A DNA stretch of 42,766 bases from Candidatus Diapherotrites archaeon CG08_land_8_20_14_0_20_34_12. GTDB taxonomy: Archaea > Iainarchaeota > Iainarchaeia > Iainarchaeales > 0-14-0-20-34-12. The notes below the pieces were generated by a model. It was given only the letters and a program-made list of their open reading frames with translations, did not search any database and was not told the origin of the DNA. The position numbers and the translations under genes were made by a program. The stretch is taken from positions 1 to 42,766 of the forward strand of contig PEXL01000017.1 of NCBI GenBank assembly GCA_002779065.1, read 5' to 3'. Shown piece by piece: positions 20,673 through 42,764 of this stretch (the first letter of the stretch is position 1; each line of letters starts with the position of its first letter).

Positions 20673-21311
20673 ATGAAGATATTAGCTATTAGTGACATTC
20701 ATAATGAGATCCAGAACCTTGATAAATTACTGTGGAGCATTAATAAAAAGGATGTTGATTTAACCATAATTTGCGGGGATATAACTAATTATGGCCCAAA
20801 GGATTATGCTGAAAGGATCATTGATAAATTTGCTTTTGCAAAACTTTTAGCCATACCTGGAAACCTTGACTTAAATGAAGTTTTAACTCTGCTTGAAACA
20901 AAAAATATTTCAATACATGGAAAAAGACTGAAACTAGATGGTTTTAATGTTGCCGGATATGGGGGAGGATTAGTTGGAAGTGCCGGAGTAATCTTAAATA
21001 TGGAAGAAAAAATCAAAAGGGATTTGGCAAAAATAGTTGATAGTAAAACTATGCTAGTTACACATCTGCCCCCAATAAATTCAACATTAGATAATGCTGA
21101 TGGGAAGCACATTGGCAGCAAGGCTGTTAGAGAAATAATTGAAACAAAAAAACCTTTCTTGCATTTATGCGGACATGCGCATGAATCTCCGGCTGAAGAA
21201 AAAATAAATGAAACTTTTTGCATAAATGTTGGTTCAGTAAAGAATTTTGTTGGGACACTAATCGAAATTGATGGCAGTAAAAACATTTCCTGTAAGAGGC
21301 TGAAATTTTAA
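20673..21311 (+). CDS. Small calcineurin-like metallophosphoesterase
   Basis: ISDIHN, CGDITNYG, PGNLD and CGHAHE. Confidence 0.75.
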   Translation: MKILAISDIHNEIQNLDKLLWSINKKDVDLTIICGDITNYGPKDYAERIIDKFAFAKLLAIPGNLDLNEVLTLLETKNISIHGKRLKLDGFNVAGYGGGLVGSAGVILNMEEKIKRDLAKIVDSKTMLVTHLPPINSTLDNADGKHIGSKAVREIIETKKPFLHLCGHAHESPAEEKINETFCINVGSVKNFVGTLIEIDGSKNISCKRLKF

Positions 21312-21958
21312 TGGAGAAAAAATCCTCAAATACAAAAAACAGCAGAAAAATATCACAAAAAGCCAATCTGGAGGAAAACCGTTTCAAGATGGTTAAGGAA
21401 AGGCATCGCAAAACATTTGAAGAAGCATTAGCAAAAGGAAAGATGGATGAAAAACTAGTTAATTTTTGCAAATATGTTTCTTCTACCAGAAATTACTTCA
21501 CATCTTCATGCTGTTCTGGAAGGATTTTGTTATTAAGAATTGAGGGGAATGATAGGGATAAAAGAAATTGTCATTTTCACAGGAAATGGCATGATATTGT
21601 TTCACTTTCTGAAGTTTTAGCAGGAATAAATGAGGATACTAAAGGCAGGATATGGTTTAAGGTTGAACCATTTATTCTGCATTTGGGCTGCAAAGATCTT
21701 GAAAATGCAAAAAAAATACTTGAAGTAATGAAATTAGCCGGCATTAAAAGGGGTGGCATAATTGTTGCTAAAGAAGGAAAATTTATGGTTGAATTTATGG
21801 GAACCCAGGAAATGTCATTTTTAGCCAAAGAAGATGATGCTATTTTAGTGGATAAAGGATATTTGGAAAATGCAGTTAATGAAGCTAATCGAAAAATGAC
21901 TGTAAATGAAGAAATGCTTATTCGCTTAGAAAAAGAGGTAAGAAAAAAATTGAAATAA
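21311..21958 (+). CDS. taw3: tRNA wybutosine-synthesis protein 3 (Taw3/TYW3-like methyltransferase)
   Basis: SSCCSGRI motif and the overall size are typical of TYW3. Confidence 0.6.
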   Translation: MEKKSSNTKNSRKISQKANLEENRFKMVKERHRKTFEEALAKGKMDEKLVNFCKYVSSTRNYFTSSCCSGRILLLRIEGNDRDKRNCHFHRKWHDIVSLSEVLAGINEDTKGRIWFKVEPFILHLGCKDLENAKKILEVMKLAGIKRGGIIVAKEGKFMVEFMGTQEMSFLAKEDDAILVDKGYLENAVNEANRKMTVNEEMLIRLEKEVRKKLK

Positions 21959-25532: not shown

Positions 25533-25595
25533 ATTTTTAATTTTAAACGACCCCGGAGGGACTCGAACCCTCAACCCCCAGGTAACTTCACCAAG

Positions 25596-25655
25596 CCTTT
25601 TTCTTTCTTTTCTAAAGAAAGAAAAAGGCTAGGTCTTATCCAAAAAGAAAGAAAA
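25596..25655 (+). repeat. Y-hairpin-R plus mirror-R element, copy A1 (inside the tRNA-Arg intron)
   Basis: CCTTTTTCTTTCTT-ttcta-AAGAAAGAAAAAGG, linker CTAGGTCTTATCC, then AAAAAGAAAGAAAA. Confidence 0.7.
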
Positions 25656-25684: not shown

Positions 25685-25749
25685 TTTCTCTTTTTTCTTT
25701 TGGCAACCTACATTTTCTTTTTTCTCTTTCTAAGAGAAAAAAGAAAAGG
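25685..25749 (-). repeat. Y-hairpin-R plus mirror-R element, copy A2 (inside the tRNA-Arg intron, opposite orientation)
   Basis: Minus strand: TTTTCTTTTTTCTCTT-aga-AAGAGAAAAAAGAAAA, linker TGTAGGTTGCC, then AAAAGAAAAAAGAGAAA, which is the exact mirror of R1. Confidence 0.7.
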
Positions 25750-26371: not shown

Positions 26372-28744
26372 ATGATTACAAAGCTTAGGTTAGAAAACTG
26401 GAAGACCCATAAGGATTCTGAACTTGAATTTGATAAAGGAACAAATGTACTTATTGGAAAAATGGGCTCTGGGAAAACATCAGTAATTGAAGCTATTTGC
26501 TATGCTTTATTTGGCACATTTCCTGCATTAAACAGGAAAGAGGTTTCAATTGAAGAGGTTATATTAAGCAAACCTTATGAAGAAGATAATGCTTCTTTAA
26601 CACTTGAATTCAGATATGGCAAAAGTAATTATTCCGTTAACAGAAAAATCCTAAAAAAGAAAACAAATCAAGCAACTTTGTATGAAAATGGCCGTTTAAT
26701 TGCCGGCCCTCAAGTTACTGAGGTTAACAAAAAGATTGAGGATATTTTGAAAATAAACTATGAAATATTTTCAAGAGCTATTTTTTCAGAACAAAATCAG
26801 ATTGACTATTTTTTAAAGTTGAGCCCACAGCAAAGGAAGCAGAGCTTTGATGAAATGCTTGCTTTGGACAGATATGAAAGGGTAAGGGCTGGTGCAGTAA
26901 AAGTAAGAAACAAAATGAAAATATTGCTTGCTTTGAAGAAGGATTCCTTAGCCAGATTATTAGAATCATTTGATGAAAAGGAACTAAAGGAAATATTGAA
27001 AAAACTTGAAGAAACTAAAGAAAGATTGGGGTCAATTAATTCAGAAATAAGCCAAAAAGAAAAAATTGTAAAAGAATTTGATATTAAAATAAAGGAATTG
27101 GAAAAAATTCGGGTTCTTTTTGAGAATTCAAGAAGGAAACAGATAGAATACAGCACGAAACTTGATACACTTCAGCAGGAAATTGCCGGATTTACTGCGG
27201 CAAAATATGAAGTTTCTGAAATAAAAAAAGAGATTGAAAAATTAGAAAAAGAGATTGAAAAAATAAATGATGCAAAATCAGAAATAAACAGCTTGAAGGC
27301 CTTAATTGAGGATAAAACAAAAAGGAAAATTTCTTTGGATAAGGTTATTTTATCTATAAAATCAAAAAACCCTTTGGGGGTTAATGAAAAGGATATTGAA
27401 GAAAAGATTTTAGGATTAAACAAAAAAATAAAGGATCTAGAAGAATTGATTGACGGAAGTGCGGAAGATATTGAAAAATTAGAAGAAAAAAGGTCTAAAA
27501 ACAAGGAAGAAATTGGTTGTGTTTGTGAAAGAATAAATAATCATAAAAAAGAACATGACAATCTAAAAGGATTGCATGCAAAATGCCCTATCTGCAAGCA
27601 AGCAGTTGATGAAACACTAAAGAAAAACCTTTCAAAAGAAAATGAAGCTTGCATTTCTAAAGAAGAAAAAGTGCTTGATGGGTTGAAAGGCGAATTGGGG
27701 GAGCTTGAGAAAAAGATTGAACTTACAAGAACTGAAGAAAAAGAACAGAGAAAATTATTTGAAACATTAAATAAAGAAATTCAGGCCCTAGAAGGTTCAA
27801 AAAAAGACATTCAGATGCTGCTTGAGAATGAAAAACAGGCAGAATTGCTAAAAAAAGATATATGCAATTTGAATGAAAAACAGGAGAAAGCTTCGAAATT
27901 AATTGCGAAAGAAGATATTTCTGAGAAAAAGAAGGAAATTGAAAAGAATACTGAGATCTTAAGAAAGATAGAAAAAAGTGAAACTGCTGAAAAGATAAAA
28001 AAAGATCTAAAAGGAATAGAATCTCAATTAAAAGAGATAAAATATGACAGGGATGAAGAGATAGAAATAAGGGCAATTTTTGAAAGGGAAAAAGAAACTA
28101 TAAGAAGTTTAGGTAAAGAGCTTGAAACCAAAACGGAATGGATTAATGAGGCTGGGAAAAGGAAGATTTCAATAGAATCAATGGAAAAAAATATAGGAGA
28201 ATTGAAAAGGGGGATTGAAAATATTGAAAAGTCAAATGAAAAAATTGCTATATTTACCAATACGTTAATTGAAACACAAAATAGTCTCAGAACATTACTT
28301 ATTGAAACAATAAATGATGCAATGGGTGATTTATGGTGGAGAATTTACCCTTATAAAGATTATTCTTCTTTGAAAATAGATATTTCTGAAGGGGATTATG
28401 TTTTGATGATAAAAACCCCTACAAAATGGCAGAGGATTGAGGGATTGTTGAGTGGGGGGGAAAGAAGTGCCGCAGCATTAACAATCAGATTGGCATTCTC
28501 ACTTGTATTGGCATCAAATTTAAGCTGGCTGATATTGGATGAACCGACTCACAATTTAGACAGGATGACTATTTCAAGGTTAAGCCTGCTGATGAGGGAG
28601 CATATGCCAACCCTGATTGAACAAATATTTTTGATAACGCATGATAGTGAGATGGAAAATGCTGCTTCATCCAAGGTTTATTTCCTTGAAAGAAATAAGG
28701 ATGAGGAAGGCATTACTAAGCCGATAGTTCAAGATGTGGAATAA
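26372..28744 (+). CDS. rad50: Rad50 DNA double-strand break repair ATPase
   Basis: Walker A GKMGSGKTS, long coiled coil with zinc hook CPICKQ, signature LSGGERSAAAL and Walker B LILDEPTHNLD. Confidence 0.9.
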   Translation: MITKLRLENWKTHKDSELEFDKGTNVLIGKMGSGKTSVIEAICYALFGTFPALNRKEVSIEEVILSKPYEEDNASLTLEFRYGKSNYSVNRKILKKKTNQATLYENGRLIAGPQVTEVNKKIEDILKINYEIFSRAIFSEQNQIDYFLKLSPQQRKQSFDEMLALDRYERVRAGAVKVRNKMKILLALKKDSLARLLESFDEKELKEILKKLEETKERLGSINSEISQKEKIVKEFDIKIKELEKIRVLFENSRRKQIEYSTKLDTLQQEIAGFTAAKYEVSEIKKEIEKLEKEIEKINDAKSEINSLKALIEDKTKRKISLDKVILSIKSKNPLGVNEKDIEEKILGLNKKIKDLEELIDGSAEDIEKLEEKRSKNKEEIGCVCERINNHKKEHDNLKGLHAKCPICKQAVDETLKKNLSKENEACISKEEKVLDGLKGELGELEKKIELTRTEEKEQRKLFETLNKEIQALEGSKKDIQMLLENEKQAELLKKDICNLNEKQEKASKLIAKEDISEKKKEIEKNTEILRKIEKSETAEKIKKDLKGIESQLKEIKYDRDEEIEIRAIFEREKETIRSLGKELETKTEWINEAGKRKISIESMEKNIGELKRGIENIEKSNEKIAIFTNTLIETQNSLRTLLIETINDAMGDLWWRIYPYKDYSSLKIDISEGDYVLMIKTPTKWQRIEGLLSGGERSAAALTIRLAFSLVLASNLSWLILDEPTHNLDRMTISRLSLLMREHMPTLIEQIFLITHDSEMENAASSKVYFLERNKDEEGITKPIVQDVE

Positions 28745-29336: not shown

Positions 29337-30851
29337 TTAGAAATAAAAATCAGCATGATGGTTATTGCAAATAGGCATCAAAATGTCTTTTTTCAGGAAG
29401 AAGTCGGGAGTCAAATATTCTCCTTGTATAAAGATTTTATTACAAAATGAGTCGATTGCAATGATTCTTGTTCCTTCTTTTTTCATGATTTCCGACCATT
29501 CTGCAATCAAAGACTGTTGCTTGCTCCTGAATGACTCTGCAATCACTTTTGAATAATACTGGTTCTTTGTATCAAGCAAAAAATTAGGCACTTTATTAAA
29601 GATGGCATTTAACAAATTTGAATATTGTTTCATGAAATAATAATTCAAATCAGATTCCAATAACATCAATGCATTCAATTTATATTGATGCAAGAATATT
29701 TTTTCATAGGATTCAATATTTGAATTTATTTTTTCTGATTTTGAGGATATCATTTCTATCGCATTGCTCAAAAATGATTTTTCATTTCTGCAAGACCAGT
29801 GTAACTCATTATTATTGGGTAAAATTTCAGCAAATCCTTCTTTCTGCAAGATTTTTGCATCTTCAATTGGGATTTTATAAGAATCGCCAAAGAAGAATGG
29901 CCCTATTGGGATATTTTTTGTCAAGAATTCTGCTTTTCTTGCCAATCTTCTTTCCTTATTTGAATTTCCAAGGTGGAATTTGTTTGAAAAATCTGAAAAC
30001 CTTGAATCATAGTAAAAAGCATCCGATAAAAAACGTACAGAAACTAGTGAATTTGGAAAAATATTCCCAGAATAAATATTTTCAGGGATGCAGCAAGCAC
30101 AATTATTTGTTTCTGAACCGATATTTTCTTTTATAATAACCTTTGGCCAAATCTTGGAGAAATCCAATTCCATAAGGTTTTGGAATCTGCCCCTAACCGA
30201 TTCATTTGAGATGAATATATTTGAATTATCTTTAGTGGGAAATATTTTTTCCTGCAAAAATAAGCTATTTTGGATTAGCATTTCAAGTTGATGCCTTTTT
30301 TTCAGTGGAACTTTCTGAAAGGGAATTGCAAGGAGATTGGAAAGCAGCAAGCAATTTGTTAATTGTTTTGCTGCCTTCTTATCCTCAGAACGCAGATTGG
30401 TTATGAGAGAATCCAGAGGGCTCTCAAAAAACTCTAGGAGAAGCAAGGGAAACGAAAACATATTTTGTTTATTAGGAATATCTGCATCCAAAGTAAATAG
30501 ATCAAAATAACTCCATCCATTAAGGAGTAAGAATTGCCTTTCTGGTTCAAGCATAAAGGTTTCTTTCTTGGCAAAATAACATCGCAATTCTTTTAATTTA
30601 GAATAATTCTTGCCAATAACCTTTATATTTTTTTTATTTTGTAAAAGTTTGAATGAATTAATTCCTAAAAGATTGATTTTTTCATCAAGAAGTTTTTCAT
30701 TTGAATCAGATTTGTGAATGAATAAAACTGGGTAAAAATCATAATTTTTAGTTATTTTGGTTTCTCTGTTTGAAAATTCAACTGTTATTCTTCTTTTTTC
30801 ATTTAAGTATGTTGCGTTGCTTAACCAAAGTGTGCCGGGTGTGGAAGACAT
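29337..30851 (-). CDS. Truncated, apparently inactivated family-B DNA polymerase-like protein
   Basis: By eye: a PolB N-terminal-like DFYPVLFI; a motif-B-like KLNALMLLESDLNYYF (compare KLLANSFYGYYG); and a motif-C region AESFRSKQQSLIAEWSEIMKKEGTRIIAIDSFCNKIFIQG (compare AESVTAWGR...VLYIDTDGLYATIPG) in which DTD is replaced by DSF. Confidence 0.45.
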   Translation of the reverse strand: MSSTPGTLWLSNATYLNEKRRITVEFSNRETKITKNYDFYPVLFIHKSDSNEKLLDEKINLLGINSFKLLQNKKNIKVIGKNYSKLKELRCYFAKKETFMLEPERQFLLLNGWSYFDLFTLDADIPNKQNMFSFPLLLLEFFESPLDSLITNLRSEDKKAAKQLTNCLLLSNLLAIPFQKVPLKKRHQLEMLIQNSLFLQEKIFPTKDNSNIFISNESVRGRFQNLMELDFSKIWPKVIIKENIGSETNNCACCIPENIYSGNIFPNSLVSVRFLSDAFYYDSRFSDFSNKFHLGNSNKERRLARKAEFLTKNIPIGPFFFGDSYKIPIEDAKILQKEGFAEILPNNNELHWSCRNEKSFLSNAIEMISSKSEKINSNIESYEKIFLHQYKLNALMLLESDLNYYFMKQYSNLLNAIFNKVPNFLLDTKNQYYSKVIAESFRSKQQSLIAEWSEIMKKEGTRIIAIDSFCNKIFIQGEYLTPDFFLKKDILMPICNNHHADFYF

Positions 30852-30872: not shown

Positions 30873-30939
30873 TATTTAAAGAAAAGCAAAGAGAGTGGAT
30901 TTCCGGTGAAATTTCTAAAGCTAAGTGATTTCCGCTGAA
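30873..30939 (-). promoter_or_regulatory. Promoter of the PolB-like gene: TATA (30873-30880), motif copy 2a (30893-30910) and a tandem degenerate copy 2b (30924-30939)
   Basis: Plus strand reads GAGTGGATTTCCGGTGAA and AGTGATTTCCGCTGAA. The TATA is 21 nt from the ATG, and motif 2a is 12 nt from the TATA. Confidence 0.55.
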
Positions 30940-30945
30940 CACCTT

Positions 30946-31623
30946 TTATTCATAGAGCACTGAATCTGCGTGCTGGCAATATTTTCTATATATAGCATAT
31001 ATTAAAGAAGCGTATTTTATCGGCAAGGCGTCTGCCAGACCATAAATATTCTGCTGCATCTCCATATGTCTTATTCTGCCTTCTTCAGGGATTAATCCTC
31101 TTATTGCCCCAACATCCACGATTGCCCTTGATGCTCTTTCTTGTTGATTTTGTTTTTTGCCCTTAAAATAAATCAACCAGGGCTCAAGAACTTTTCTTCC
31201 TGTATCAATCCACAGTTCATTGTTGTGTAGTATTGCCAGATCTCTAGCTAAACCTGCTGCAATAGAGCGTGCATTTTGAAATGAATCTATCATAGAAGGG
31301 TCTTTAAACAAATCAACTGACATATATACATTATCTTTTGATAAATCCCGCACAAATAAAAAATCATCAGATAGGTGATCAGCCTTGCCCGTCGGAATTC
31401 CCAAATCTCTTAATTTGCCCAGTAAACTCCTATGCCAATCCGGATTTTGGCCTTCGAACTGCTTAGCCAAAAAATATTTTCTTCTTTGTGGGTTCCCCCT
31501 GTGAAATATATCAATCCTAGTGGTATCCATTCCTGGCTGTATGACCCATCCTTTAACAAGCTTTTGCTCTCTTGCCTGTGCTGCTTTTTTTCTATGTGCT
31601 ACGCTTCTTTTTGGCCAAGGCAT
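30946..31623 (-). CDS. Uncharacterised Arg-rich protein, paralogue of 35407-36051 (family A)
   Basis: Shares IPT.K, LF.RDLSK, DL..DP, ARDLAI.HNN, EPWL.YF and ASRAI.DVGAI with the 214-aa paralogue. Lies 41 nt downstream of herA. Confidence 0.6.
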   Translation of the reverse strand: MPWPKRSVAHRKKAAQAREQKLVKGWVIQPGMDTTRIDIFHRGNPQRRKYFLAKQFEGQNPDWHRSLLGKLRDLGIPTGKADHLSDDFLFVRDLSKDNVYMSVDLFKDPSMIDSFQNARSIAAGLARDLAILHNNELWIDTGRKVLEPWLIYFKGKKQNQQERASRAIVDVGAIRGLIPEEGRIRHMEMQQNIYGLADALPIKYASLIYAIYRKYCQHADSVLYE

Positions 31624-31664
31624 ACTAATAATTTGGACAAATATTTAATATTACTTACCGAAGA

Positions 31665-34600
31665 CTATGGGAGAAATTCTGCTGTTTCTTCCCTTGTTTT
31701 GTCTGCAGATTGCTCAAATTTCAGGGCTGCATCTTCCAAGGAAATTTCGTGCTTGCTTGGCATTGATTTTCTGTACCTTACCTTAAAAAATAATGGATAG
31801 CCTGTTGCTTCTCCAACAAGTAGGGCTTCCCCTACCTGCAATGAATTTATTATGCCAAAGCTTCTTTGGTCAATTCCTTCTGAAGATTCTGCTATATGCT
31901 TCAGATCATTTGGATTTGTAATACGCAGAATCATATGGGTTGAGCATTGTGATAGTGTTGTTGTATCTAATTGAACTGGCCTTTGGGAGATAATACAAAG
32001 AGACATACCAAACTTTCTTCCTTCCCTTGCAATTGTCCTTAAAATAGAACGGGAGATTGCTGATTCTTCTGAAACATGTTCAGGACACCACTGGTGTGCT
32101 TCCTCTGCAATTAAAAGGGTTGGAGGAATTACATTGGATTTCCTTTCATCAAACAGCTTGTTTGCAAAATAACTTACTATCATCTGCTTTTTTTTCATAT
32201 TAACTACATCTGAGAAATCAATTATTGTTAAAGTTCCTGGCTTAATTAATTCGGAAATTGCGGGCATATCTGTCCTTGCAAATAAATTGTAGGACATTAA
32301 ATCATCAATCCAGCCAAGTAAGGGGAATTTTGAATTCTGTTTTATATTATTATCTTTTAGGATTGCATCCTTTACATGTGACCAATCAAAAGGGCCTAAT
32401 CCTTTCCGCATATCCTCTTTCAAACAAGATAAAATTCTGCTCAGATCTCTTTTCTGCGGTGCGGTCAAACCAGGAATAATTCCTGCTAACATATGAACAC
32501 TCATTTTAGGAACAGCAATTCTGATATTTTGTGCTTTGATGATTTTTGTTCTGTCAGAAAAATCCTCATATTTGCCATCTTTCACTGGCTGGGCAAAGCT
32601 TGAATACTCGCCATGAGGGTCCAAAACCACTATTGCAATTCTGCCTTTTTGCTTTGGCCTATTAAGGAGTTCTTCAATTAGGCAAGCTGTGGAAAAACTA
32701 TTGTGAATAATCAAGTTATTTGCAACAAAATTGTGCTCTTCCACACACAAATCATAAACATACTTTTTGTCATAATCAACCTCTTCAACAGATTTAATCG
32801 CATCAAAAAACAAGCCATCAGAAACAAGAGTATGTAAAAAATCGAGTTTCTCCCTGATTTCGGGCAATTGCTTTTCTTTATCTATTGAAATAATAAAAAG
32901 ATTGTATAAAACCTTGTAAATATTTGAATATTTTATTGTATTTAGGGGATTATAAGAATAGCCATCCAAATATTGACCCCTAAATCCACTTCTGCAGCAT
33001 AATTCTCCTATCTCATAGCCAAGATTTTTGCACAAAACTCTAATTTGATTGGCTATTTGCTTAAAATCTAAATTAGTTATTGTATCTATCCCTAAATCTG
33101 ATTCATTTTCTAAAGCCAGAACATTTTTGGCCAAATAAAAGGTGTTTATAGTTGGTTCTGTTAAACCCCTTACTACTCTTCTTGCAGTAGTGTTTGAAAC
33201 CTTTGTATTCTTGGCAATTTTGTTAAAATCATATTTAGAATAGGCATTCACAAGTATTTGCTTTGCATCTTCTTCTGTCAAGTTAGGCATAACATAAAAT
33301 AATTTTTTTGTTTGGGTTATTGCGCTATGAATGTTCGCATAATTATGCTCAAATTCAGCTAGTAAAGATCTTAATGAAATAGGAGTCGGATCATCATGCC
33401 TTTCATTTAGTGACAAATAATTGGCAATATTGACAAATTGGTTTTGGGTTAAATTGAGCTTATTTTTTAGGAAACCTAAGGTATGTTTAATGTTGGGAAT
33501 TACCCTAACGTTTGAATTTGATTTTTTTAGAGAACATTCCTTGAGCGCTTTTGCTTTATAATCTATTAAAAGAGTTAATTCATTATTTAATATGTTTAAA
33601 TAATCTGCACCTCCTAAAAATAATCTGCCATATTGTTTGCCCTTAACTGTTTTTATCTTTCTTATTGGGTTTAATTTAAAGCGCAAAACTATTTGCTCTA
33701 TGTTGTCTAACATTTGCTTGCTGGCAAGGGTTATCTCAATATGTGATTTCTTGGAACAAACATAACCATCACAATCAATAAATGCACTCAAAAAAGCAGC
33801 CAAAACTGATTTTTTACTTAATAGAATTTCCTTGGGCACATATTTGGTCCAACTTGAATTAGTAAAACCTAGCTTAAACAAGCTATCTGCTAAAAGCTTG
33901 TTATAAATCCTAAGTTCAATATCCCTCTTTCTGTTAATATTTGCGACAATGCCCAACAGTTTTGCCAGGTTACTAAAATCGTCCCTAATTAAATTAGAAC
34001 TATTGGTAAAACTAATAGTTTGACCTCCGTTATGTCCTTCTGCTAACAAATAGGCCATGAACCTTGCAAAATTTTCATCAACCATAATCTTTGCAGGAAT
34101 TCTAGAAGACCGTACTTTTAATGTTTTTATTTTAGAGCATATCTCCAAAAAATTCATATCTAATTTGTCACAAATTAATTTAAGATTATTTAGAGAAACT
34201 CCAGGGTAGGATAATAAATATTGCAGTTTTCTTGATGGCATATTAACAATTCTAGAGAACTCCTTCATTGAATATTTTTCAAAGAGTTTTGACTTTAATT
34301 CAGCTAAAATGGATTTATCATCAACCCTGACCTTAGTAGAATTCTCCCATAATTGTACAAAATCAATTATTTGTTCCGAACCCGCTATTTGAGGCATTGC
34401 CGTAATTAGATAATCTTTTTTAGCAAGATTTTTAGCTTGAACCCAGTTTATTTGCTCATTTAGAATAGGTATTGGGTGTTCTGGAGTAACTAATAATTGT
34501 TTGCCTGTTCTTGTTTTGATTTTGAACATTTTTTTAGGGGCTTTCCTGCGCATAAATGCCTTAATTTCAGAAGCTATTGGTTGATTATTTTCATCCAATG

Positions 34601-35261
34601 AAATTACTTTCAAATTATTTGGGTTAATATCACACAATTCAACATTGTCTTCAATTACTTTTTTATTTTCCAAATGCTTGTCGACAAGCTCGCCAAGCTT
34701 TACTGTGTCACCATTACCCAACAATATTTCAAGATTATAATCTCCGCATTTTCCGGAACCAGACATTGCCATAATTGCAAGGTGTTTTTTTAACATGCGA
34801 GTCATATTCAATTTTACTGGAAGATCATGATGTTCAACATTGCCTAAATGCATTCCAGATTCATCAAAATGGAAGAATTTCTTCAGTTTTTCATTGTCTG
34901 CAATCCTTACCTTTGAACCAGGACTTGGGGGGAAACTTGGCCTGTAAAAATTATCGCCGGAATAAACACCTAAAGGTTTTGTGTTTGCTACAAGATATTC
35001 CCATTCATGCACAGGGAATTGCTCAAACAACGCTTGGCCCTTTGATTCAAATTCCTTTACTGAATCAGCCCTTTCAAAATATTTATTAGTTCTAAAAACA
35101 TCCATTACCAATGCAATAAAATTCCCACTTGCATTTTCGATCTCAACAAATTGCCCTCTATGTATCAAACCGGAGGTAACAACAAAATCTGCAGTGCTAG
35201 GGCTTGGAGAATTAATTGCAGATATAACTGTTCCAACTGTTTGTGCATTCTTTGCGACCAT
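31665..35261 (-). CDS. herA: HerA hexameric DNA translocase/helicase, interrupted by an intein in the Walker A motif
   Basis: Exteins give a P-loop GSGK|S, Walker B LLIAEEAHQW, and ISQRPVQLDTTTLSQCSTHMILRITNPND. The spliced product would be 515 aa. Confidence 0.85.
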   Translation of the reverse strand: MVAKNAQTVGTVISAINSPSPSTADFVVTSGLIHRGQFVEIENASGNFIALVMDVFRTNKYFERADSVKEFESKGQALFEQFPVHEWEYLVANTKPLGVYSGDNFYRPSFPPSPGSKVRIADNEKLKKFFHFDESGMHLGNVEHHDLPVKLNMTRMLKKHLAIMAMSGSGKCGDYNLEILLGNGDTVKLGELVDKHLENKKVIEDNVELCDINPNNLKVISLDENNQPIASEIKAFMRRKAPKKMFKIKTRTGKQLLVTPEHPIPILNEQINWVQAKNLAKKDYLITAMPQIAGSEQIIDFVQLWENSTKVRVDDKSILAELKSKLFEKYSMKEFSRIVNMPSRKLQYLLSYPGVSLNNLKLICDKLDMNFLEICSKIKTLKVRSSRIPAKIMVDENFARFMAYLLAEGHNGGQTISFTNSSNLIRDDFSNLAKLLGIVANINRKRDIELRIYNKLLADSLFKLGFTNSSWTKYVPKEILLSKKSVLAAFLSAFIDCDGYVCSKKSHIEITLASKQMLDNIEQIVLRFKLNPIRKIKTVKGKQYGRLFLGGADYLNILNNELTLLIDYKAKALKECSLKKSNSNVRVIPNIKHTLGFLKNKLNLTQNQFVNIANYLSLNERHDDPTPISLRSLLAEFEHNYANIHSAITQTKKLFYVMPNLTEEDAKQILVNAYSKYDFNKIAKNTKVSNTTARRVVRGLTEPTINTFYLAKNVLALENESDLGIDTITNLDFKQIANQIRVLCKNLGYEIGELCCRSGFRGQYLDGYSYNPLNTIKYSNIYKVLYNLFIISIDKEKQLPEIREKLDFLHTLVSDGLFFDAIKSVEEVDYDKKYVYDLCVEEHNFVANNLIIHNSFSTACLIEELLNRPKQKGRIAIVVLDPHGEYSSFAQPVKDGKYEDFSDRTKIIKAQNIRIAVPKMSVHMLAGIIPGLTAPQKRDLSRILSCLKEDMRKGLGPFDWSHVKDAILKDNNIKQNSKFPLLGWIDDLMSYNLFARTDMPAISELIKPGTLTIIDFSDVVNMKKKQMIVSYFANKLFDERKSNVIPPTLLIAEEAHQWCPEHVSEESAISRSILRTIAREGRKFGMSLCIISQRPVQLDTTTLSQCSTHMILRITNPNDLKHIAESSEGIDQRSFGIINSLQVGEALLVGEATGYPLFFKVRYRKSMPSKHEISLEDAALKFEQSADKTREETAEFLP
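32700..34748 (-). mobile_element. 683-aa intein with a LAGLIDADG homing-endonuclease domain
   Basis: Cys1 directly follows MSGSGK (CGDYNLEILL). The C-terminus is NNLIIHN with +1 Ser restoring GKS. LAGLIDADG blocks are FMAYLLAEGHNG and FLSAFIDCDGYV. Hint block B is LLVTPEHP. Confidence 0.85.
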
Positions 35262-35282
35262 AATTAACTAAACAAAAAGTTG

Positions 35283-35318
35283 TTTATAAAGGATTGCGAA
35301 GAGTAGATTTCCGCTGAA
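35283..35318 (-). promoter_or_regulatory. herA promoter: TATA (35283-35290) plus motif copy 3 (35301-35318)
   Basis: Plus strand reads GAGTAGATTTCCGCTGAA. The motif is 10 nt from TTTATAAA, which is 21 nt from the herA ATG. Confidence 0.55.
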
Positions 35319-35324
35319 TGGCCC

Positions 35325-35400
35325 CTTTCTTTTCTTAAAAAGAAAAGAAAGACCCCAGGGTTCAAAGAAAAGAAGGAAAATTTTGCAAGAAAAAAGAAGG
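35325..35400 (+). repeat. Y-hairpin-R plus mirror-R element, copy B (with a third purine tract)
   Basis: CTTTCTTTTCTT-aaa-AAGAAAAGAAAG, linker ACCCCAGGGTTC, AAAGAAAAGAAGG, AAAATTTTGC, then AAGAAAAAAGAAGG. Confidence 0.7.
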
Positions 35401-35406
35401 ATAAAA

Positions 35407-36051
35407 TTATTTTCTATATTTTTTATACGTAGCTTCTATCTGACTTCGATAATCTGGGAAGTGTTCAGTTAATCTGAACAAATTAGGCCTCATCGGATCA
35501 GAATCAAAATCAGCATATGCCTTGCGGCTGTAATAGATTGCACCAACATCAGTTATTGCCCTTGATGCGATATGCGCTGATTCGTGTTTTGGGCTCCGGA
35601 AATAAAGCAACCAAGGTTCTGTAACACTCCTGCCTTTAAGTATAAATAATCCGTTATTATGCATTATTGCCAAATCCCTTGCAATGCCTTTTATTAATGA
35701 TTCGGCATTCACACACCCTTGAATAATATCAGGATCGAAATGTAAATCCAAAGCAATTGTTCTGCCGCCTTTTGACAAATCCCTTGCGAAAAGATATTTT
35801 CTTTCTGAAATTCCCTCCACCTTGGCAGTTGGAATTTTTAATTTCCGCAATCTGGAAAAGATGGCTTTATGCCTTCTGGCAACAGCACTTTCAGAAGCAG
35901 AAGTATGCTGAAAAAATCTTTTTCGTAAAAGATGTTTCTTGCGATAACCTCTGCCTGAAGCAAATGCAAGAACCTCTATGGCATCCCTTCCACTATTCCT
36001 TGAACCTGTCTGCCTTGCTTTGGCAAACCTTATTCTGTTTGGCTTAGGCAT
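35407..36051 (-). CDS. Uncharacterised Arg-rich protein, paralogue of 30946-31623 (family A)
   Basis: See the paralogue entry. The N-terminus MPKPNRIRFAKARQ is basic. Confidence 0.6.
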   Translation of the reverse strand: MPKPNRIRFAKARQTGSRNSGRDAIEVLAFASGRGYRKKHLLRKRFFQHTSASESAVARRHKAIFSRLRKLKIPTAKVEGISERKYLFARDLSKGGRTIALDLHFDPDIIQGCVNAESLIKGIARDLAIMHNNGLFILKGRSVTEPWLLYFRSPKHESAHIASRAITDVGAIYYSRKAYADFDSDPMRPNLFRLTEHFPDYRSQIEATYKKYRK

Positions 36052-36107
36052 ACCTGAATTATGCAGGCATTAGATTTTATCTTTTGCTGATAAATAGCAC
36101 ATTACTT

Positions 36108-36536
36108 TTAGAGTTCATTCTTGCAGATAAATACAAGCAGCTCAACAAGCACCTGATTCATTGAATAAGCAAACAGGCCAATTGCGCCAAAAAAGAAAAG
36201 ATCTGTAGGGGTTGGGGTTAATTTGAACTGGGCAAGCATTGCAAATGTTGCAGTATATATTGCAACAAGCAAAATGGCAATATTTATTGCATGCCTCTTG
36301 AAATTCCAGCGTTCAAGCCTAACTGTTCTGCCAAGCAAAGCTTCAATTGCAGGCCTTGCTGCCAAGAGCCAGGCTGCAAAAAAGAGGATTGCATTTACAA
36401 AAAAAGGAATATAGGAAAATTCTTGGCTTGGTGTTTCAGGAACGCTTGCAACAAGGTAAGCAAGCCAATATGCAATAAGCGTTCCAAATAATAAAGTGAT
36501 TTTTATAAAACCAAAAATTATTTTCATTGCATCCAT
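36108..36536 (-). CDS. Small integral membrane protein (about 4 TM helices)
   Basis: Hydrophobic profile. No family recognised. Confidence 0.5.
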   Translation of the reverse strand: MDAMKIIFGFIKITLLFGTLIAYWLAYLVASVPETPSQEFSYIPFFVNAILFFAAWLLAARPAIEALLGRTVRLERWNFKRHAINIAILLVAIYTATFAMLAQFKLTPTPTDLFFFGAIGLFAYSMNQVLVELLVFICKNEL

Positions 36537-36610
36537 AAAAGAAACCAGATAACATACTTAGAATTAGACATTATTAAAAATAAATGCTAGCTTAAGTTAT
36601 TTGGTCAACT

Positions 36611-37177
36611 ATGCCAAAAAGTCCTAATGCAAGAAGAGGTTGGCATGCTGCAAAGATCGCTTCCTTTAGGGAAGAATTAAAGCGCAGGCCTGTGCAAAAA
36701 AAGGATTACCCAAAGATAATAGAGCATTATAGGGAAAGGATTGATGATTGCTTTGATTCTAATATGGAAACAGATGGCTTGAGTGGCTAGGTAAGGGGTT
36801 ATATTGAATTTGACAAAGGCGTTGACAGAATGTGGCATGATTTTAACCAATTAGGGCTTCGCAATTGGGAATAGCATAGTGTAGTGCCACAGATAAGGGA
36901 AAGGTATTTCGAGCTGAAAGCTCGATTCCTTAATTTAATAAAAGGCGAGGCAAAAGCATATTGTGGATTTATTGCAAAAGACATTTATGAAAGTGCAAGG
37001 CGCGGAAGGCCTTTCACCCTAAGCACATTCCAGGAAGCTGCAAGGAATCAAATAGAGCATGCACTCGAATTGCTACCGGCAACTGAAAGGAATGAGGTAC
37101 TGGAAGCATATGGAAAGGGCATGGGAATAATAGAAGACGCCTTGGGGAAGAAATTAAATGGTTTAAAAAGGCCTTGA
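36611..37177 (+). pseudogene. Single 189-codon reading frame interrupted only by two in-frame TAG codons. It is a pseudogene, three small ORFs, or a read-through gene.
   Basis: Sub-ORFs are 36611-36790 (MPKSPNARRGWHAAK..., 59 aa), 36830-36874, and 36884-37177 (GTG start, 97 aa). TAGs lie at 36788-36790 and 36872-36874, and the final stop is TGA. All three sub-ORFs are in the same frame. Confidence 0.4.
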
Positions 37178-38248
37178 ATCTCTTCGCATTAATCGGAAAT
37201 TAGTGCCTAATTTATCTGCTATTTTATTAAAAATAAATTCAATTTCGTCTGGATTTAAACCTGCCCTTAAATCTGCTTCAATTAGGGGAGAAGGAAATGC
37301 ATATTCCCTGTGCAATGAAGATACTTGATAAATTACTGAAGAAATTTTATCTATAAATTCTGTTAGTTTTTGACTTTTTTCATTGCTTAGGAATTCAATC
37401 CTTAAAGCACGGTCGTATTTTGAGGGTTTTAAATAACAGACATTTACTGCTTTAGAATATTTTTCATTGAAATCTGAAAGAATAGGGTGTTGTTCAATAT
37501 CAACTGTGTAAGGGAAGGCCGCAGTTCTTTCTTTTTCTTTAAGCAAATGATCCAAAAGAACTGAATCATAACAATCATCAAATTTAGATTTATTTTGCTC
37601 GGAAACAAAATTTTGTTGAATTATTTCCCTGAATCTTGAGCCCCGAGAATCTTCAATGCAGCCAATTAAAATTGTGCCATTGTCTTCAGCTGCTTTATAT
37701 AAACTTTCAAATAAAGAAATTACTTTTGAATATGAGCTTGTTACCTTTGAATCCTTCCTTGGCTTGTCCGCATGTTGCGGGATGATTGAACCATCAAGCA
37801 GGCAGTATTCTGGCTTGTGTTTTTCAATTATCTCTTTTGCCAAACTGATCTCTTCAAACAAGCGGTATAAGCTCTTTGAAACAGAACTTTCATCCAATTG
37901 TAAAGCGCCATTAATAAAAATCGGTTTTGGGAATGAAAACATTTCTGGATAATATTCTGCCTTTTCAAGAGTGCTATTTTTATAAGAAAAAAGGACTGAT
38001 GCTGTCCTTATAAAAAGTAAATCAAACGAATATAGATTCTTGCCAACAAAACCGGAATCAACCGCCGCAATTCTTGAATTTAAATGATGTTCAGCTATTG
38101 GAAAAACCAATTGCTCTTCGAGCAAAGGGCTTTTTCCTTCATTTTTTAAATATTTTTTTGGGAGAATTTCCTTAACAGCTTCGCTTCTCTTTGATTCATT
38201 TATTTTTATATTTTCAACTGCTTCTGAAATGATTTTGAGTGGATTCAT
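37163..38248 (-). CDS. nurA: NurA-like 5'-3' nuclease
   Basis: IAAVDSGF and CLLDGSIIPQ resemble NurA catalytic Asp motifs. The size (361 aa) and herA neighbourhood fit. The start is taken at MNPLKII, 24 nt downstream of a TATA. Confidence 0.6.
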   Translation of the reverse strand: MNPLKIISEAVENIKINESKRSEAVKEILPKKYLKNEGKSPLLEEQLVFPIAEHHLNSRIAAVDSGFVGKNLYSFDLLFIRTASVLFSYKNSTLEKAEYYPEMFSFPKPIFINGALQLDESSVSKSLYRLFEEISLAKEIIEKHKPEYCLLDGSIIPQHADKPRKDSKVTSSYSKVISLFESLYKAAEDNGTILIGCIEDSRGSRFREIIQQNFVSEQNKSKFDDCYDSVLLDHLLKEKERTAAFPYTVDIEQHPILSDFNEKYSKAVNVCYLKPSKYDRALRIEFLSNEKSQKLTEFIDKISSVIYQVSSLHREYAFPSPLIEADLRAGLNPDEIEFIFNKIADKLGTNFRLMRRDSRPF

Positions 38249-38272
38249 CTGAAATAAAGTGGAAAAATGAAG

Positions 38273-38308
38273 TATATAAAGAAGTGGAAAGAGTGGATTT
38301 CCGGTGAA
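38273..38308 (-). promoter_or_regulatory. nurA promoter: TATA (38273-38280) plus motif copy 4 (38291-38308)
   Basis: Plus strand reads GAGTGGATTTCCGGTGAA, 10 nt from TTTATATA. Confidence 0.55.
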
Positions 38309-38313
38309 CCCAT

Positions 38314-38394
38314 CCTTTTCTTTCTTTCGCAAAGAAAGAAAAGTCTAGGTGCTGACAAAAGAAAGAAAACTTAGTTGCCAAAAGAGAAAGAAAA
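38314..38394 (+). repeat. Y-hairpin-R plus mirror-R element, copy C (with a third purine tract)
   Basis: CCTTTTCTTTCTTT-cgc-AAAGAAAGAAAAG, linker TCTAGGTGCTGAC, AAAAGAAAGAAAA, CTTAGTTGCC, then AAAAGAGAAAGAAAA. Confidence 0.7.
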
Positions 38395-38562
38395 TTATCT
38401 TGAAGATAATTTATTCTGCTGCCTGCTCCAGACTTTATTCGGGGTTTTTTTAAGCCAAGCTGCATAAGCGTCAATAAATTGCAGTCTTTGTTCAAAATTC
38501 CTTTTCTTTTCCTCTTCAAGCTCCCTTAAGTCTGATTTTGTAAGTTTTAGTAATTTTTCCAT
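38395..38562 (-). CDS. Small 55-aa protein overlapping the end of the NTase gene (MEKLLKLTKSDLRELEEEKKRNFEQRLQFIDAYAAWLKKTPNKVWSRQQNKLSSR)
   Basis: The ATG overlaps the last 16 nt of the upstream ORF. The composition looks protein-like. It is below the ORF-track cut-off. Confidence 0.4.
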   Translation of the reverse strand: MEKLLKLTKSDLRELEEEKKRNFEQRLQFIDAYAAWLKKTPNKVWSRQQNKLSSR

Positions 38563-39155
38563 AAAATCCTCTCGGCTTCCTTTTGGACCATTAATTCCTT
38601 AATATGTGATTTTAACAAATCAATATCCAAATGTTCTTTAAATACTTTATATAAGTGCCTTGCATCTTCAAAATCCTTCTCGCTACCTAACTTGAGCTTG
38701 AATGCAATCTGCAATTCTATTTCAGAAGTATTCAATTTATTGCTATTTAACAAAACTTCAACTTTATTTATTAAAGAATAATTATTATATTTTGTTTTCG
38801 GGAACTTTATCTCACAGTTTGGGATGAAAGTATTTTTTAATGCAAACCGGATTGCAAGCTTTTCTTTCAGGTAATTTTCATAGGCATCCTTGGCATCTGC
38901 TGCATTTAAGCAGTCAAATTCTTTCACCAAATCATTCCAAAATTCCTGAAATTTGCTAAACGGCATTTCTTCGATGAAAAAATCAACATCTTCTGTTTCC
39001 CTGCTTCTTCCAAATAAAATTGCAATATAACCAGAAATGATCACATAATCAATTTTGTGTTTTTTAAGCATCTTTACAAATTTAAGCACAAAGCGATCAA
39101 GCGGAGAAAGCTCTTTTTTGAATGAAATTTTATTTTTAGAAAAAGCCAATTCCAT
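38547..39155 (-). CDS. Nucleotidyltransferase-fold protein (AbiEii/MNT-like pattern)
   Basis: ISGYIAILFGRSRETEDVDFFI resembles the G[SG]-x-G-x-R-x-T-x-D[IV]D motif of the minimal NTase fold. Confidence 0.45.
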   Translation of the reverse strand: MELAFSKNKISFKKELSPLDRFVLKFVKMLKKHKIDYVIISGYIAILFGRSRETEDVDFFIEEMPFSKFQEFWNDLVKEFDCLNAADAKDAYENYLKEKLAIRFALKNTFIPNCEIKFPKTKYNNYSLINKVEVLLNSNKLNTSEIELQIAFKLKLGSEKDFEDARHLYKVFKEHLDIDLLKSHIKELMVQKEAERILWKNY

Positions 39156-39174
39156 AAATAGAACTTATTGAAAG

Positions 39175-39212
39175 CATTTAAATTGGTTTTCAAGGAGCAG
39201 ATTTCCGCTGAA
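39175..39212 (-). promoter_or_regulatory. NTase operon promoter: TATA (39175-39182) plus motif copy 5 (39195-39212)
   Basis: Plus strand reads GAGCAGATTTCCGCTGAA, 12 nt from TTTAAATG, which is 19 nt from the ATG. Confidence 0.5.
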
Positions 39213-42612: not shown

Positions 42613-42702
42613 GGGCCCGTAGCTCAGTTGGCAGAGCACCAGACTCTTAGTTCAATAAAAGGAGCTATCTGGGTGTCCTGGGTTCGAATCCCAGCGGGCT
42701 CG
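42613..42702 (+). tRNA. tRNA-Lys(CUU) with a 17-nt intron (42650-42666) at position 37/38
   Basis: GGGCCCG TA GCTC AGTTGGCA GAGC A CCAGA CT CTT A [gttcaataaaaggagct] A TCTGG GTGTC CTGGG TTCGAAT CCCAG CGGGCTC G. BHB central helix is CTCT/GGAG. No CCA is encoded. Confidence 0.9.
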
Positions 42703-42711
42703 TTACCGAAC

Positions 42712-42764
42712 CTCTCTTTTCTTTACGAAAGAAAAGAGAGTTGAGGTGTGTCAGAGAAAAGAAA
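42712..42764 (+). repeat. Y-hairpin-R plus mirror-R element, copy D (9 nt downstream of tRNA-Lys, cut by the window end)
   Basis: CTCTCTTTTCTTT-acg-AAAGAAAAGAGAG, linker TTGAGGTGTGTC, then AGAGAAAAGAAA, the mirror of R1. Confidence 0.7.

Follow-up and report, generated by a model that had tools for sequence, protein, structure and literature searches.

A compact promoter-proximal element probably marks a DNA-transaction regulon in Diapherotrites archaea

We analyzed a stretch of 42,766 nt (the 42.8-kb window) from contig PEXL01000017.1 of Candidatus Diapherotrites archaeon CG08_land_8_20_14_0_20_34_12, in which a compact, asymmetric 20-mer, TTCASCGGAAATCYRCTCYY, recurs just upstream of TATA boxes. 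This element is very probably the promoter-proximal site (operator or upstream activating site) of one sequence-specific regulator, which would govern a regulon of DNA-transaction genes in the Diapherotrites/Iainarchaeota; the name operator is drawn from comparative genomics, and the protein that would bind it is a predicted one. The regulon reading follows from the sequence itself, from its fixed position and orientation relative to the transcription factor B recognition element (BRE) and TATA box, from its retention at orthologous promoters while the flanks diverge, and from the functional coherence of the genes downstream. These same observations support the initial annotation of this DNA, which had proposed an operator immediately upstream of BRE/TATA.

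The 18-mer GAGYRGATTTCCGSTGAA occurs in the window as five exact copies, all on the + strand, at 427, 30893, 35301, 38291 and 39195, versus an expected count of 0.00 in dinucleotide-preserving shuffles; the GC content of the window is 33%. No additional copies appeared when 3 mismatches were tolerated in the 18-mer scan of the window, while the 13-nt core GATTTCCGSTGAA located a sixth copy at 30927-30939, and the sole further relaxed-core match in the window, at 21578, lies within the TYW3 coding sequence. Read on the minus strand, the proximal copies show the order motif, gap, TATA, gap, ATG, the five motif-to-TATA gaps being 10, 12, 10, 10 and 12 nt. The copies, coordinates, common orientation and gaps listed in the initial annotation were all borne out by direct reading, as was its statement that the motif is missing before rad50, abcE1, pelota, elp3, purF and cca; none of these has an upstream copy, relaxed ones included, nor does any annotated gene of the window outside the motif-bearing units.

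All the elements and units in the window are read from the minus strand. Copy 1 (TTCACCGGAAATCTACTCTT, 425-444) belongs to the promoter of a non-coding RNA, whose TATA box (TTTAAATA, 409-416) begins 10 nt downstream. The second promoter serves a 504-amino-acid (aa) reduced family-B DNA-polymerase-like (PolB-like) protein encoded at 29337-30851, with a proximal copy (TTCACCGGAAATCCACTCTC, 30891-30910) 12 nt upstream of the TATA box (TTTAAATA, 30873-30880), which stands 21 nt before the ATG at 30851, and a distal core-only copy (TTCAGCGGAAATC, 30927-30939) located 29 bp upstream of the proximal one, a tandem layout kept at orthologous promoters. The herA copy (TTCAGCGGAAATCTACTCTT, 35299-35318) lies 10 nt upstream of its TATA box (TTTATAAA, 35283-35290), 21 nt before the ATG at 35261; the regulated unit (30946-35261) comprises herA (31665-35261, with a LAGLIDADG intein) and a downstream orphan gene of 225 aa (30946-31623), which would be co-transcribed with it, as the two are 41 nt apart and the orphan has no promoter motif of its own. 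The nurA copy (TTCACCGGAAATCCACTCTT, 38289-38308) is likewise 10 nt upstream of the TATA box (TTTATATA, 38273-38280), 24 nt before the ATG at 38248, from which nurA (37163-38248) counts 361 aa. Finally, a copy (TTCAGCGGAAATCTGCTCCT, 39193-39212) lies 12 nt upstream of a TATA box (TTTAAATG, 39175-39182), 19 nt before the ATG at 39155, and opens a unit (38395-39155) formed by a DUF2204 nucleotidyltransferase gene (38547-39155) and an overlapping 55-aa DUF8150 gene, the coordinates of the latter being converted from the L001 gene call (loci outside the window are cited by L numbers as well). Pfam matches confirmed HerA (with intein), NurA, DUF2204 and Pth2 in the window, and the NurA protein was also found on groundwater metagenome contigs. 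The suggestion of leaderless mRNAs in the initial annotation holds in part: the TATA-to-ATG distances of 19-24 nt in the window are in line with it, but radA in L160 has ~33 nt and a GGTGA before its ATG.

The nucleotidyltransferase gene with its overlapping 55-aa gene (38395-39155, minus strand) is arranged like a minimal nucleotidyltransferase toxin-antitoxin module, and a similar pair (an NTP_transf_2/Polbeta nucleotidyltransferase and a 55-aa gene with no recorded domain) directly follows the PolB-like gene at L175:19205-20184.

Across 39 distinct sites the ten positions 5' of the motif are uninformative or nearly so (0.00-0.31 bits per position), conservation stops two bases past the CTC and resumes at the TATA box, and the sequence beyond the TATA box is unrelated from site to site. 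The motif-to-TATA gap has a mode of 10 nt (24 of 45 sites) with a range of 8-13, a BRE-like CRAAA is visible within it, and the ATG follows 19-60 nt beyond the TATA box. The site is bipartite, with a 13-nt core (TTCASCGGAAATC) that is kept across diverged lineages and a 3' extension (YRCTCYY) that drifts; the core can also occur by itself, forming a second site 27-30 bp upstream.

A scan for the 18-mer over one genome per prokaryotic species, with no TATA constraint, gave at least 116 matches. Eight of these fall in Iainarchaeum or unclassified-archaeon metagenome-assembled genomes of 34-49% GC, at least six of them named; the others (108 listed) are almost all single matches in unrelated bacteria, about the number expected by chance. 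Among the matches listed, TWWAWA is found 8-14 nt downstream in 6/7 Iainarchaeal cases versus 1/108 of the others, and the seventh has TATAAG. In all eight Iainarchaeal matches the flanks are unrelated to those of the window; in those with enough flanking sequence (7/8) the TATA box lies 9-12 nt downstream, with an ATG ~20-25 nt past the TATA box in six of the seven; the exception is L011, where the first long open reading frame (ORF) begins 76 nt after the core. Two checks proposed in the initial annotation, a positional bias toward promoters and a search for longer conserved flanks, thus ended with a clear bias and with no such flanks. We rejected a dispersed repeat or miniature inverted-repeat transposable element, because the flanks are uninformative, the sequence past the TATA box is unrelated and all copies are phased to promoters. 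A viral origin was rejected as well, the 18-mer giving 11 matches in viral contigs, all in GC-rich coding sequence and without a TATA box, as expected by chance.

Hairpins stand beside two of the copies and were discarded as part of the element, being generic terminators that also occur without the motif at 25590, 25713 and 42705. In this recurrent hairpin a T/C-rich arm is complementary to an A/G-rich one (CTTTCTTT...AAAGAAAG), which gives T-tracts on both strands; in the window it is present at 25590-25634, 25713-25747, 35325-35351, 38308-38350 and 42705-42747, at the 3' ends of genes and tRNAs (for instance after cca), and many related contigs have such a hairpin ahead of their motif sites. 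These hairpins look like bidirectional terminators. The one at 42705 directly follows a 90-nt tRNA (42613-42702, + strand; Rfam 58 bits) to which ARAGORN could not assign an anticodon and which probably contains an intron.

To compare orthologous promoters, syntenic loci were retrieved by way of PolB-like homologues, with identities from 67% down to 31%, and of NurA homologues (~41-51%). The nurA, herA and PolB-like promoters keep the element in L170, L171, L173 and L176, with the TATA distance preserved, even though PolB-like protein identity is only ~30% in L170 and L171 and NurA identity 41% in L176. In these diverged relatives the core CACCGGAAA is kept while the 3' half drifts: the site reads TTCA[CG][ACG]GGAAATCTACTC at the nurA, herA and PolB-like promoters of L173, TTCACCGGAAACCCGCTC at the PolB-like promoter of L171, TTCACCGGAAACCCGGCC (PolB-like) and TTCACCGGAAGCCCGCTC (nurA) in L176, and CGCACCGGAAACCCGCCC at the nurA and PolB-like promoters of L170; the PolB-like promoter of L174 still has TTCAGGGGAAAT. 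Neighbouring promoters at the syntenic loci, those of rad50 and rpb6 among them, never carry the element. A constant CA-SC-GGAAA core joined to a variable 3' extension is what one would expect if a transcription factor and its site co-evolve. The core-only second copy, 27-30 bp upstream, recurs at PolB-like promoters (window, L143, L152, L170, L173 and L176) and at mcm (L169), which suggests two protomers bound side by side.

The public gene calls for the PolB-like gene in L171 (5013) and L174 (14668) and for nurA in L176 (4108) begin upstream of the motif and TATA box; these three calls are probably over-long by ~45-60 codons, and the operator-TATA-ATG geometry gives the likely true starts. 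The rad50 genes (window 26372-28744, + strand; L170, L172, L173 and L174), which unlike herA and nurA never have the operator, have no recognisable adjacent mre11, and the one calcineurin-like candidate of the window is a metallophosphoesterase of 212 aa (20673-21311).

Moreover, a scan of Joint Genome Institute metagenomes anchored on the exact 18-mer plus TATA box yielded 32 further loci, whose downstream genes were identified by Pfam and NCBIfam profiles. Besides HerA (L143) and NurA (L144, L156), these encode RadA (L160; Pfam Rad51/RadA), MCM (L169; Pfam), a Hef nuclease/helicase (L149; NCBIfam E 2e-90), Hel308-type helicases (L164 and, as the second gene of its unit, L147; NCBIfam E 1e-131 to 1e-190) and members of the 504-aa PolB-like family (L097/L158, L143, L152). 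Other sites precede DNA-acting selfish or defence genes: N4/N6 DNA methylases (L011, L103, L141/L142; Pfam), with one further methylase candidate in L154 known from a 35-aa fragment with N-terminal likeness to L103 only; TnpB (L073, L155; Pfam OrfB_IS605/TnpB); free-standing LAGLIDADG endonucleases (LAGLIDADG_3; L039, L105, L139/L159, L161, L168), many with an N-terminal helix-turn-helix (HTH), to which L162/L166 can be joined by N-terminal similarity, with no Pfam match; PIN proteins (L062 by Pfam, L140 by eye); and RelE-like and HicB-like modules (L163, L097), recognized by eye with no profile match. L145 encodes a ComF-like protein (weak NCBIfam match), and a few loci carry unknown genes. 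No ribosomal, translation or central-metabolism gene stands behind the motif among ~35 distinct sites, and the downstream set is a coherent one of DNA repair, recombination and replication genes plus DNA-acting selfish genes, which appear to have adopted the same promoter module. The small regulon centred on DNA-end processing that was initially proposed is therefore too narrow, as radA, mcm, hef, hel308, methylases, LAGLIDADG endonucleases, TnpB and toxin-antitoxin genes are included.

Two families found next to motif copies were considered as the regulator itself. The HTH-LAGLIDADG family was rejected as a domesticated regulator, its acidic residues both being intact by eye and its members variable and multi-copy; these proteins look like active homing endonucleases. 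The 225-aa orphan of the herA unit (30946-31623, minus strand) has a 214-aa paralogue at 35407-36051 (minus strand), 40% identical, both with very basic N-termini and a conserved 'ARDLAILHNN...DVGAI' stretch that is kinase-like by eye; an orthologue of the 225-aa protein occupies the same place in L173 (L173:9144-9857). For these paralogues we obtained no Pfam match, a protein search that returned the query alone and an AlphaFold2 model with a predicted local distance difference test score (pLDDT) of 48, and they were dropped as candidate regulators in view of the tiny family (the query plus one L173 orthologue) and the poor model.

If the TATA box is centred near -26, the element would span about -41 to -60 relative to the transcription start, which places it immediately 5' of where the BRE lies. 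A regulator bound there would contact or position TFB/TBP, and the phasing of 10 ± 2 nt would fit a stereospecific contact with the pre-initiation complex. Archaeal sites directly upstream of BRE/TATA usually recruit or stabilise TBP/TFB, and sites over or downstream of the TATA box repress; by position, activation is weakly favoured over repression, although a large or oligomerising protein at -41 could alternatively occlude the BRE and so repress. The composition of the regulon suggests a trigger, which may be DNA damage, the cell cycle or replication stress: its genes would serve end resection (herA, nurA), recombination (radA), repair helicase and nuclease functions (hef, hel308) and the replicative helicase (mcm), together with the PolB-like protein, and the module would have been adopted by DNA-acting selfish and defence genes (N4/N6 methylases, LAGLIDADG endonucleases, TnpB, PIN, RelE, HicB and nucleotidyltransferase modules).

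As to the protein that would bind the element, our leading candidate is, tentatively, a winged-helix protein of the Orc1/Cdc6 family, the alternative being some other winged-helix or HTH protein. The 13-nt core matches the P. abyssi mini origin recognition box (mini-ORB) TTCCAGTGGAACT at 9/12 positions, a score reached by 0.8% of composition-matched shuffles (reference sequence from PMC1904270), and the S. solfataricus Orc1-1 mORB (GATTTTCAGATGAAACG / TTTTCAGATGAAACG) at 9/13, reached by 2.5% of shuffles (reference sequence from PMC3089459). The loose mini-ORB likeness noted in the initial annotation is thus above chance for the core but only modest: the TTCC and GAA that are invariant in the 13-bp, dyad-like origin boxes are both present here, spaced N3, whereas in the Pyrococcus boxes they are spaced N4. 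Full and core-only versions coexist in both systems; however, the copies described here are neither clustered or inverted around an unwinding element nor located beside orc1/cdc6, each being phased to a TATA box.

In Sulfolobus the damage-response regulator is the Orc1/Cdc6 paralogue Orc1-2 (PMC6061795), and the DNA damage-responsive element (DDRE) of the Sulfolobales is bound by this non-initiator paralogue, which activates or represses (PMC6061795, PMC9738581). The DDRE is comparable in being a short promoter-proximal element common to DNA-damage-related genes of an archaeon, its published 20-bp consensus AATAGTTTCRGWDTACTCWS has a TACTC in register with the one found here, and CTACTCTCT is part of the orc1-2 promoter oligo. 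The hexamer ANTTTC, on the other hand, is not in our element, whose + strand reads RGATTTCC, with G at the first position and a 5/6 match, and in Sulfolobus the DDRE is nearer to the ATG, at -23 to -55. The likeness was rejected, since the whole motif compared with the orc1-2 and upsE promoter oligos scored no better than shuffles (0.94 and 0.58). The gene sets differ too: the highly up-regulated Sulfolobus genes named in PMC6061795 are upsA, upsE, tfb3 and cedA1, while radA, herA, nurA, hef and hel308, members here, are not among the genes which that paper names. With considerable reserve, an Orc1/Cdc6 member, possibly of the fast-evolving Orc1-2 cluster, might be proposed as the master regulator of an SOS-like regulon, acting through ORB-derived operators just upstream of BRE/TATA that selfish nucleases, transposases, methylases and toxin-antitoxin modules would have captured.

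Several points weigh against the operator reading and its Orc1 extension. The TATA boxes and BREs look canonical and strong, which is less typical of activator-dependent archaeal promoters and would also suit repression. Anchoring on the 18-mer plus TATA box makes the metagenome sample of sites, and with it the regulon membership, biased and incomplete, and it understates variation within clades. No clear copy can be recognised at the nurA promoters of L174, L175 and L177, and the regulon thus differs between lineages of the phylum. Lastly, where the Orc1 idea is concerned, no orc1/cdc6 gene came up when the ORFs of ~270 kb of archaeal loci were all screened for a Walker-A motif, and no replication origin was found there.

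Four other explanations were weighed against the operator. An element with such strict spacing to BRE/TATA could be an extension of the core promoter that a specialised TFB or TBP paralogue recognizes, defining an alternative promoter class for DNA-transaction genes; archaeal precedents exist for paralogue-specific promoter use, and TFB3 acts in the Sulfolobus damage response. TFB3 is mentioned as a damage-response gene in PMC6061795. We nevertheless regard this explanation as unlikely, as a normal BRE-sized gap, already with a BRE-like CRAAA, separates the element from the TATA box, known TFB-DNA contacts stop short of -60, and a separate DNA-binding protein accounts better than a basal factor for the distal core-only copies, which lie 27-30 bp further upstream. 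Less probable still is an ORB-type site with a primary replication role for Orc1/Cdc6, the promoter association being secondary (origin-like or initiator-titrating sites dispersed beside replication and repair genes). The mini-ORB and mORB matches given above, the parallel between full and core-only sites and ORB and mini-ORB, and the presence of mcm among the flanking genes would suit it, but all six window copies share one orientation and keep a fixed distance to a TATA box and ATG of their own, no inverted pair flanks an AT-rich unwinding region and clusters never exceed two sites, neither the window nor the scanned archaeal loci contain orc1/cdc6, and the TTCC-GAA spacing departs from that of the Pyrococcus core. 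In addition, P. abyssi Cdc6 is found in vivo essentially only at oriC, isolated mini-ORBs remaining unbound (PMC1904270).

We give very little weight to a recombination site (like an integron attC or the end of an insertion sequence) or mobile promoter cassette that travels with selfish genes and came to stand before repair genes, even if mobile and defence genes are numerous downstream (TnpB, LAGLIDADG, methylases, toxin-antitoxin), the window has four consecutive same-orientation units each opening with the motif, one site adjoins a tRNA 3' end (L105), and L146 and L150 share the promoter plus a leader beyond the motif. Nothing is conserved outside the 20-mer and the TATA box in 39 sites, there are neither inverted-repeat partners nor target duplications, and viral contigs gave chance matches only; the single-copy herA, nurA and PolB-like genes keep the element at orthologous positions with gradual drift, and because these core genes do so through deep divergence, vertical inheritance under selection is indicated rather than repeated insertion. 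Least credible of all is that the motif marks the starts of + strand small RNAs. The TATA boxes TATTTAAA and TTTATAAA are near-palindromic, and on the + strand the motif is immediately followed by hairpins at 35325-35351 and 38308-38350; these, however, are the generic terminators also seen motif-free after cca (25590, 25713) and after the tRNA (42705), and it is the ATG on the downstream side of the motif that is conserved in more than 40 sites, the other side being arbitrary (coding 3' ends, tRNA, terminators).

Returning to the genes under the proposed operator, the 504-aa family has only eight detectable homologues, all apparently from Diapherotrites. The label PolB-like, already used in the initial annotation, is supported by a weak profile match to a PolB structure and by the AlphaFold model (pLDDT 71), which matches archaeal family-B DNA polymerases in Foldseek (E 1e-6, probability 1.0), with a low TM-score because the protein is much shorter than family-B polymerases. 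An invariant C251/C253/C254 cluster characterizes the family, no canonical catalytic motif is evident by eye in the 504-aa protein, and the gene neighbourhood is conserved as herA...PolB-like-rpb6-S17e-rad50. The intein of the window herA, with its LAGLIDADG homing-endonuclease domain, covers about residues 182-854 (31665-35261, minus strand); an intein is also present in L173 and L177, while herA is intein-less (~512 aa) in L143, L170 and L174-L176.

Downstream of copy 1 there is no ORF, and the sequence points to a structured non-coding RNA as what this copy drives. The RNA, of ~190 nt, would extend over 200-390 on the minus strand (ends estimated) and finishes in a terminal hairpin followed by a T-tract. 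A homologue at L146:1190-1330 shares GCCTTTGGAGC...AGCGATGAATTAGGAAGC and shows compensatory changes in at least three hairpins; the minimum free energy z-score is -2.0, and Rfam gave no family for the copy-1 locus even at E up to 1. L150 has the same promoter and 40-nt leader as the non-coding RNA, followed by an ORF that is TnpB-like by eye (no Pfam match); an insertion sequence may have inserted into the non-coding RNA gene there.

The bacterial SOS box and LexA of E. coli govern what we take to be an analogous regulon, composed of recombinase, repair helicases, an accessory B-family polymerase, toxin-antitoxin and mobile genes. Mobile elements and toxins are under LexA control in bacteria, a parallel to the selfish genes behind the operator here. 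The SOS box is, however, unrelated in sequence and palindromic, whereas the site described here is asymmetric and located upstream of, not over, the core promoter; to our knowledge, archaea have no LexA. Upstream activator sites of the Ptr2/TFB-RF1 type lie, as here, directly upstream of BRE/TATA with fixed phasing, some of them in tandem; they are palindromic or short repeats bound by dimers of Lrp-type or other HTH proteins at metabolic genes, in contrast with the 20-bp asymmetric word found here on promoters with canonical TATA boxes. When the literature was searched for the motif string, the 15 matches listed out of 126 were all unrelated primers, and a keyword search for an archaeal radA/herA/mcm regulon gave nothing relevant. 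A promoter-proximal operator that defines a regulon is a well-known kind of thing; the operator sequence, the lineage and the composition of the regulon appear undescribed.

The best-characterised archaeal damage regulon found in our literature search is that of Sulfolobus Orc1-2/DDRE, whose named up-regulated genes are not repair enzymes. Here one cis-element links radA, herA, nurA, hef, hel308, mcm and the PolB-like gene across a DPANN phylum, and the 20-bp element offers a testable handle on coordinated control of archaeal DNA repair and replication. It also aids annotation, by correcting over-long gene starts, flagging a new non-coding RNA and linking a new PolB-like family to DNA metabolism, and it lets selfish DNA-cutting genes be seen adopting the repair promoter of their host. 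The question whether Orc1-2-cluster proteins outside the Sulfolobales regulate damage responses was posed in PMC6061795, and the element bears on it: were the tentative Orc1/Cdc6 assignment true, initiator-derived damage or cell-cycle control would reach beyond the Sulfolobales, in a regulon that contains the repair enzymes.

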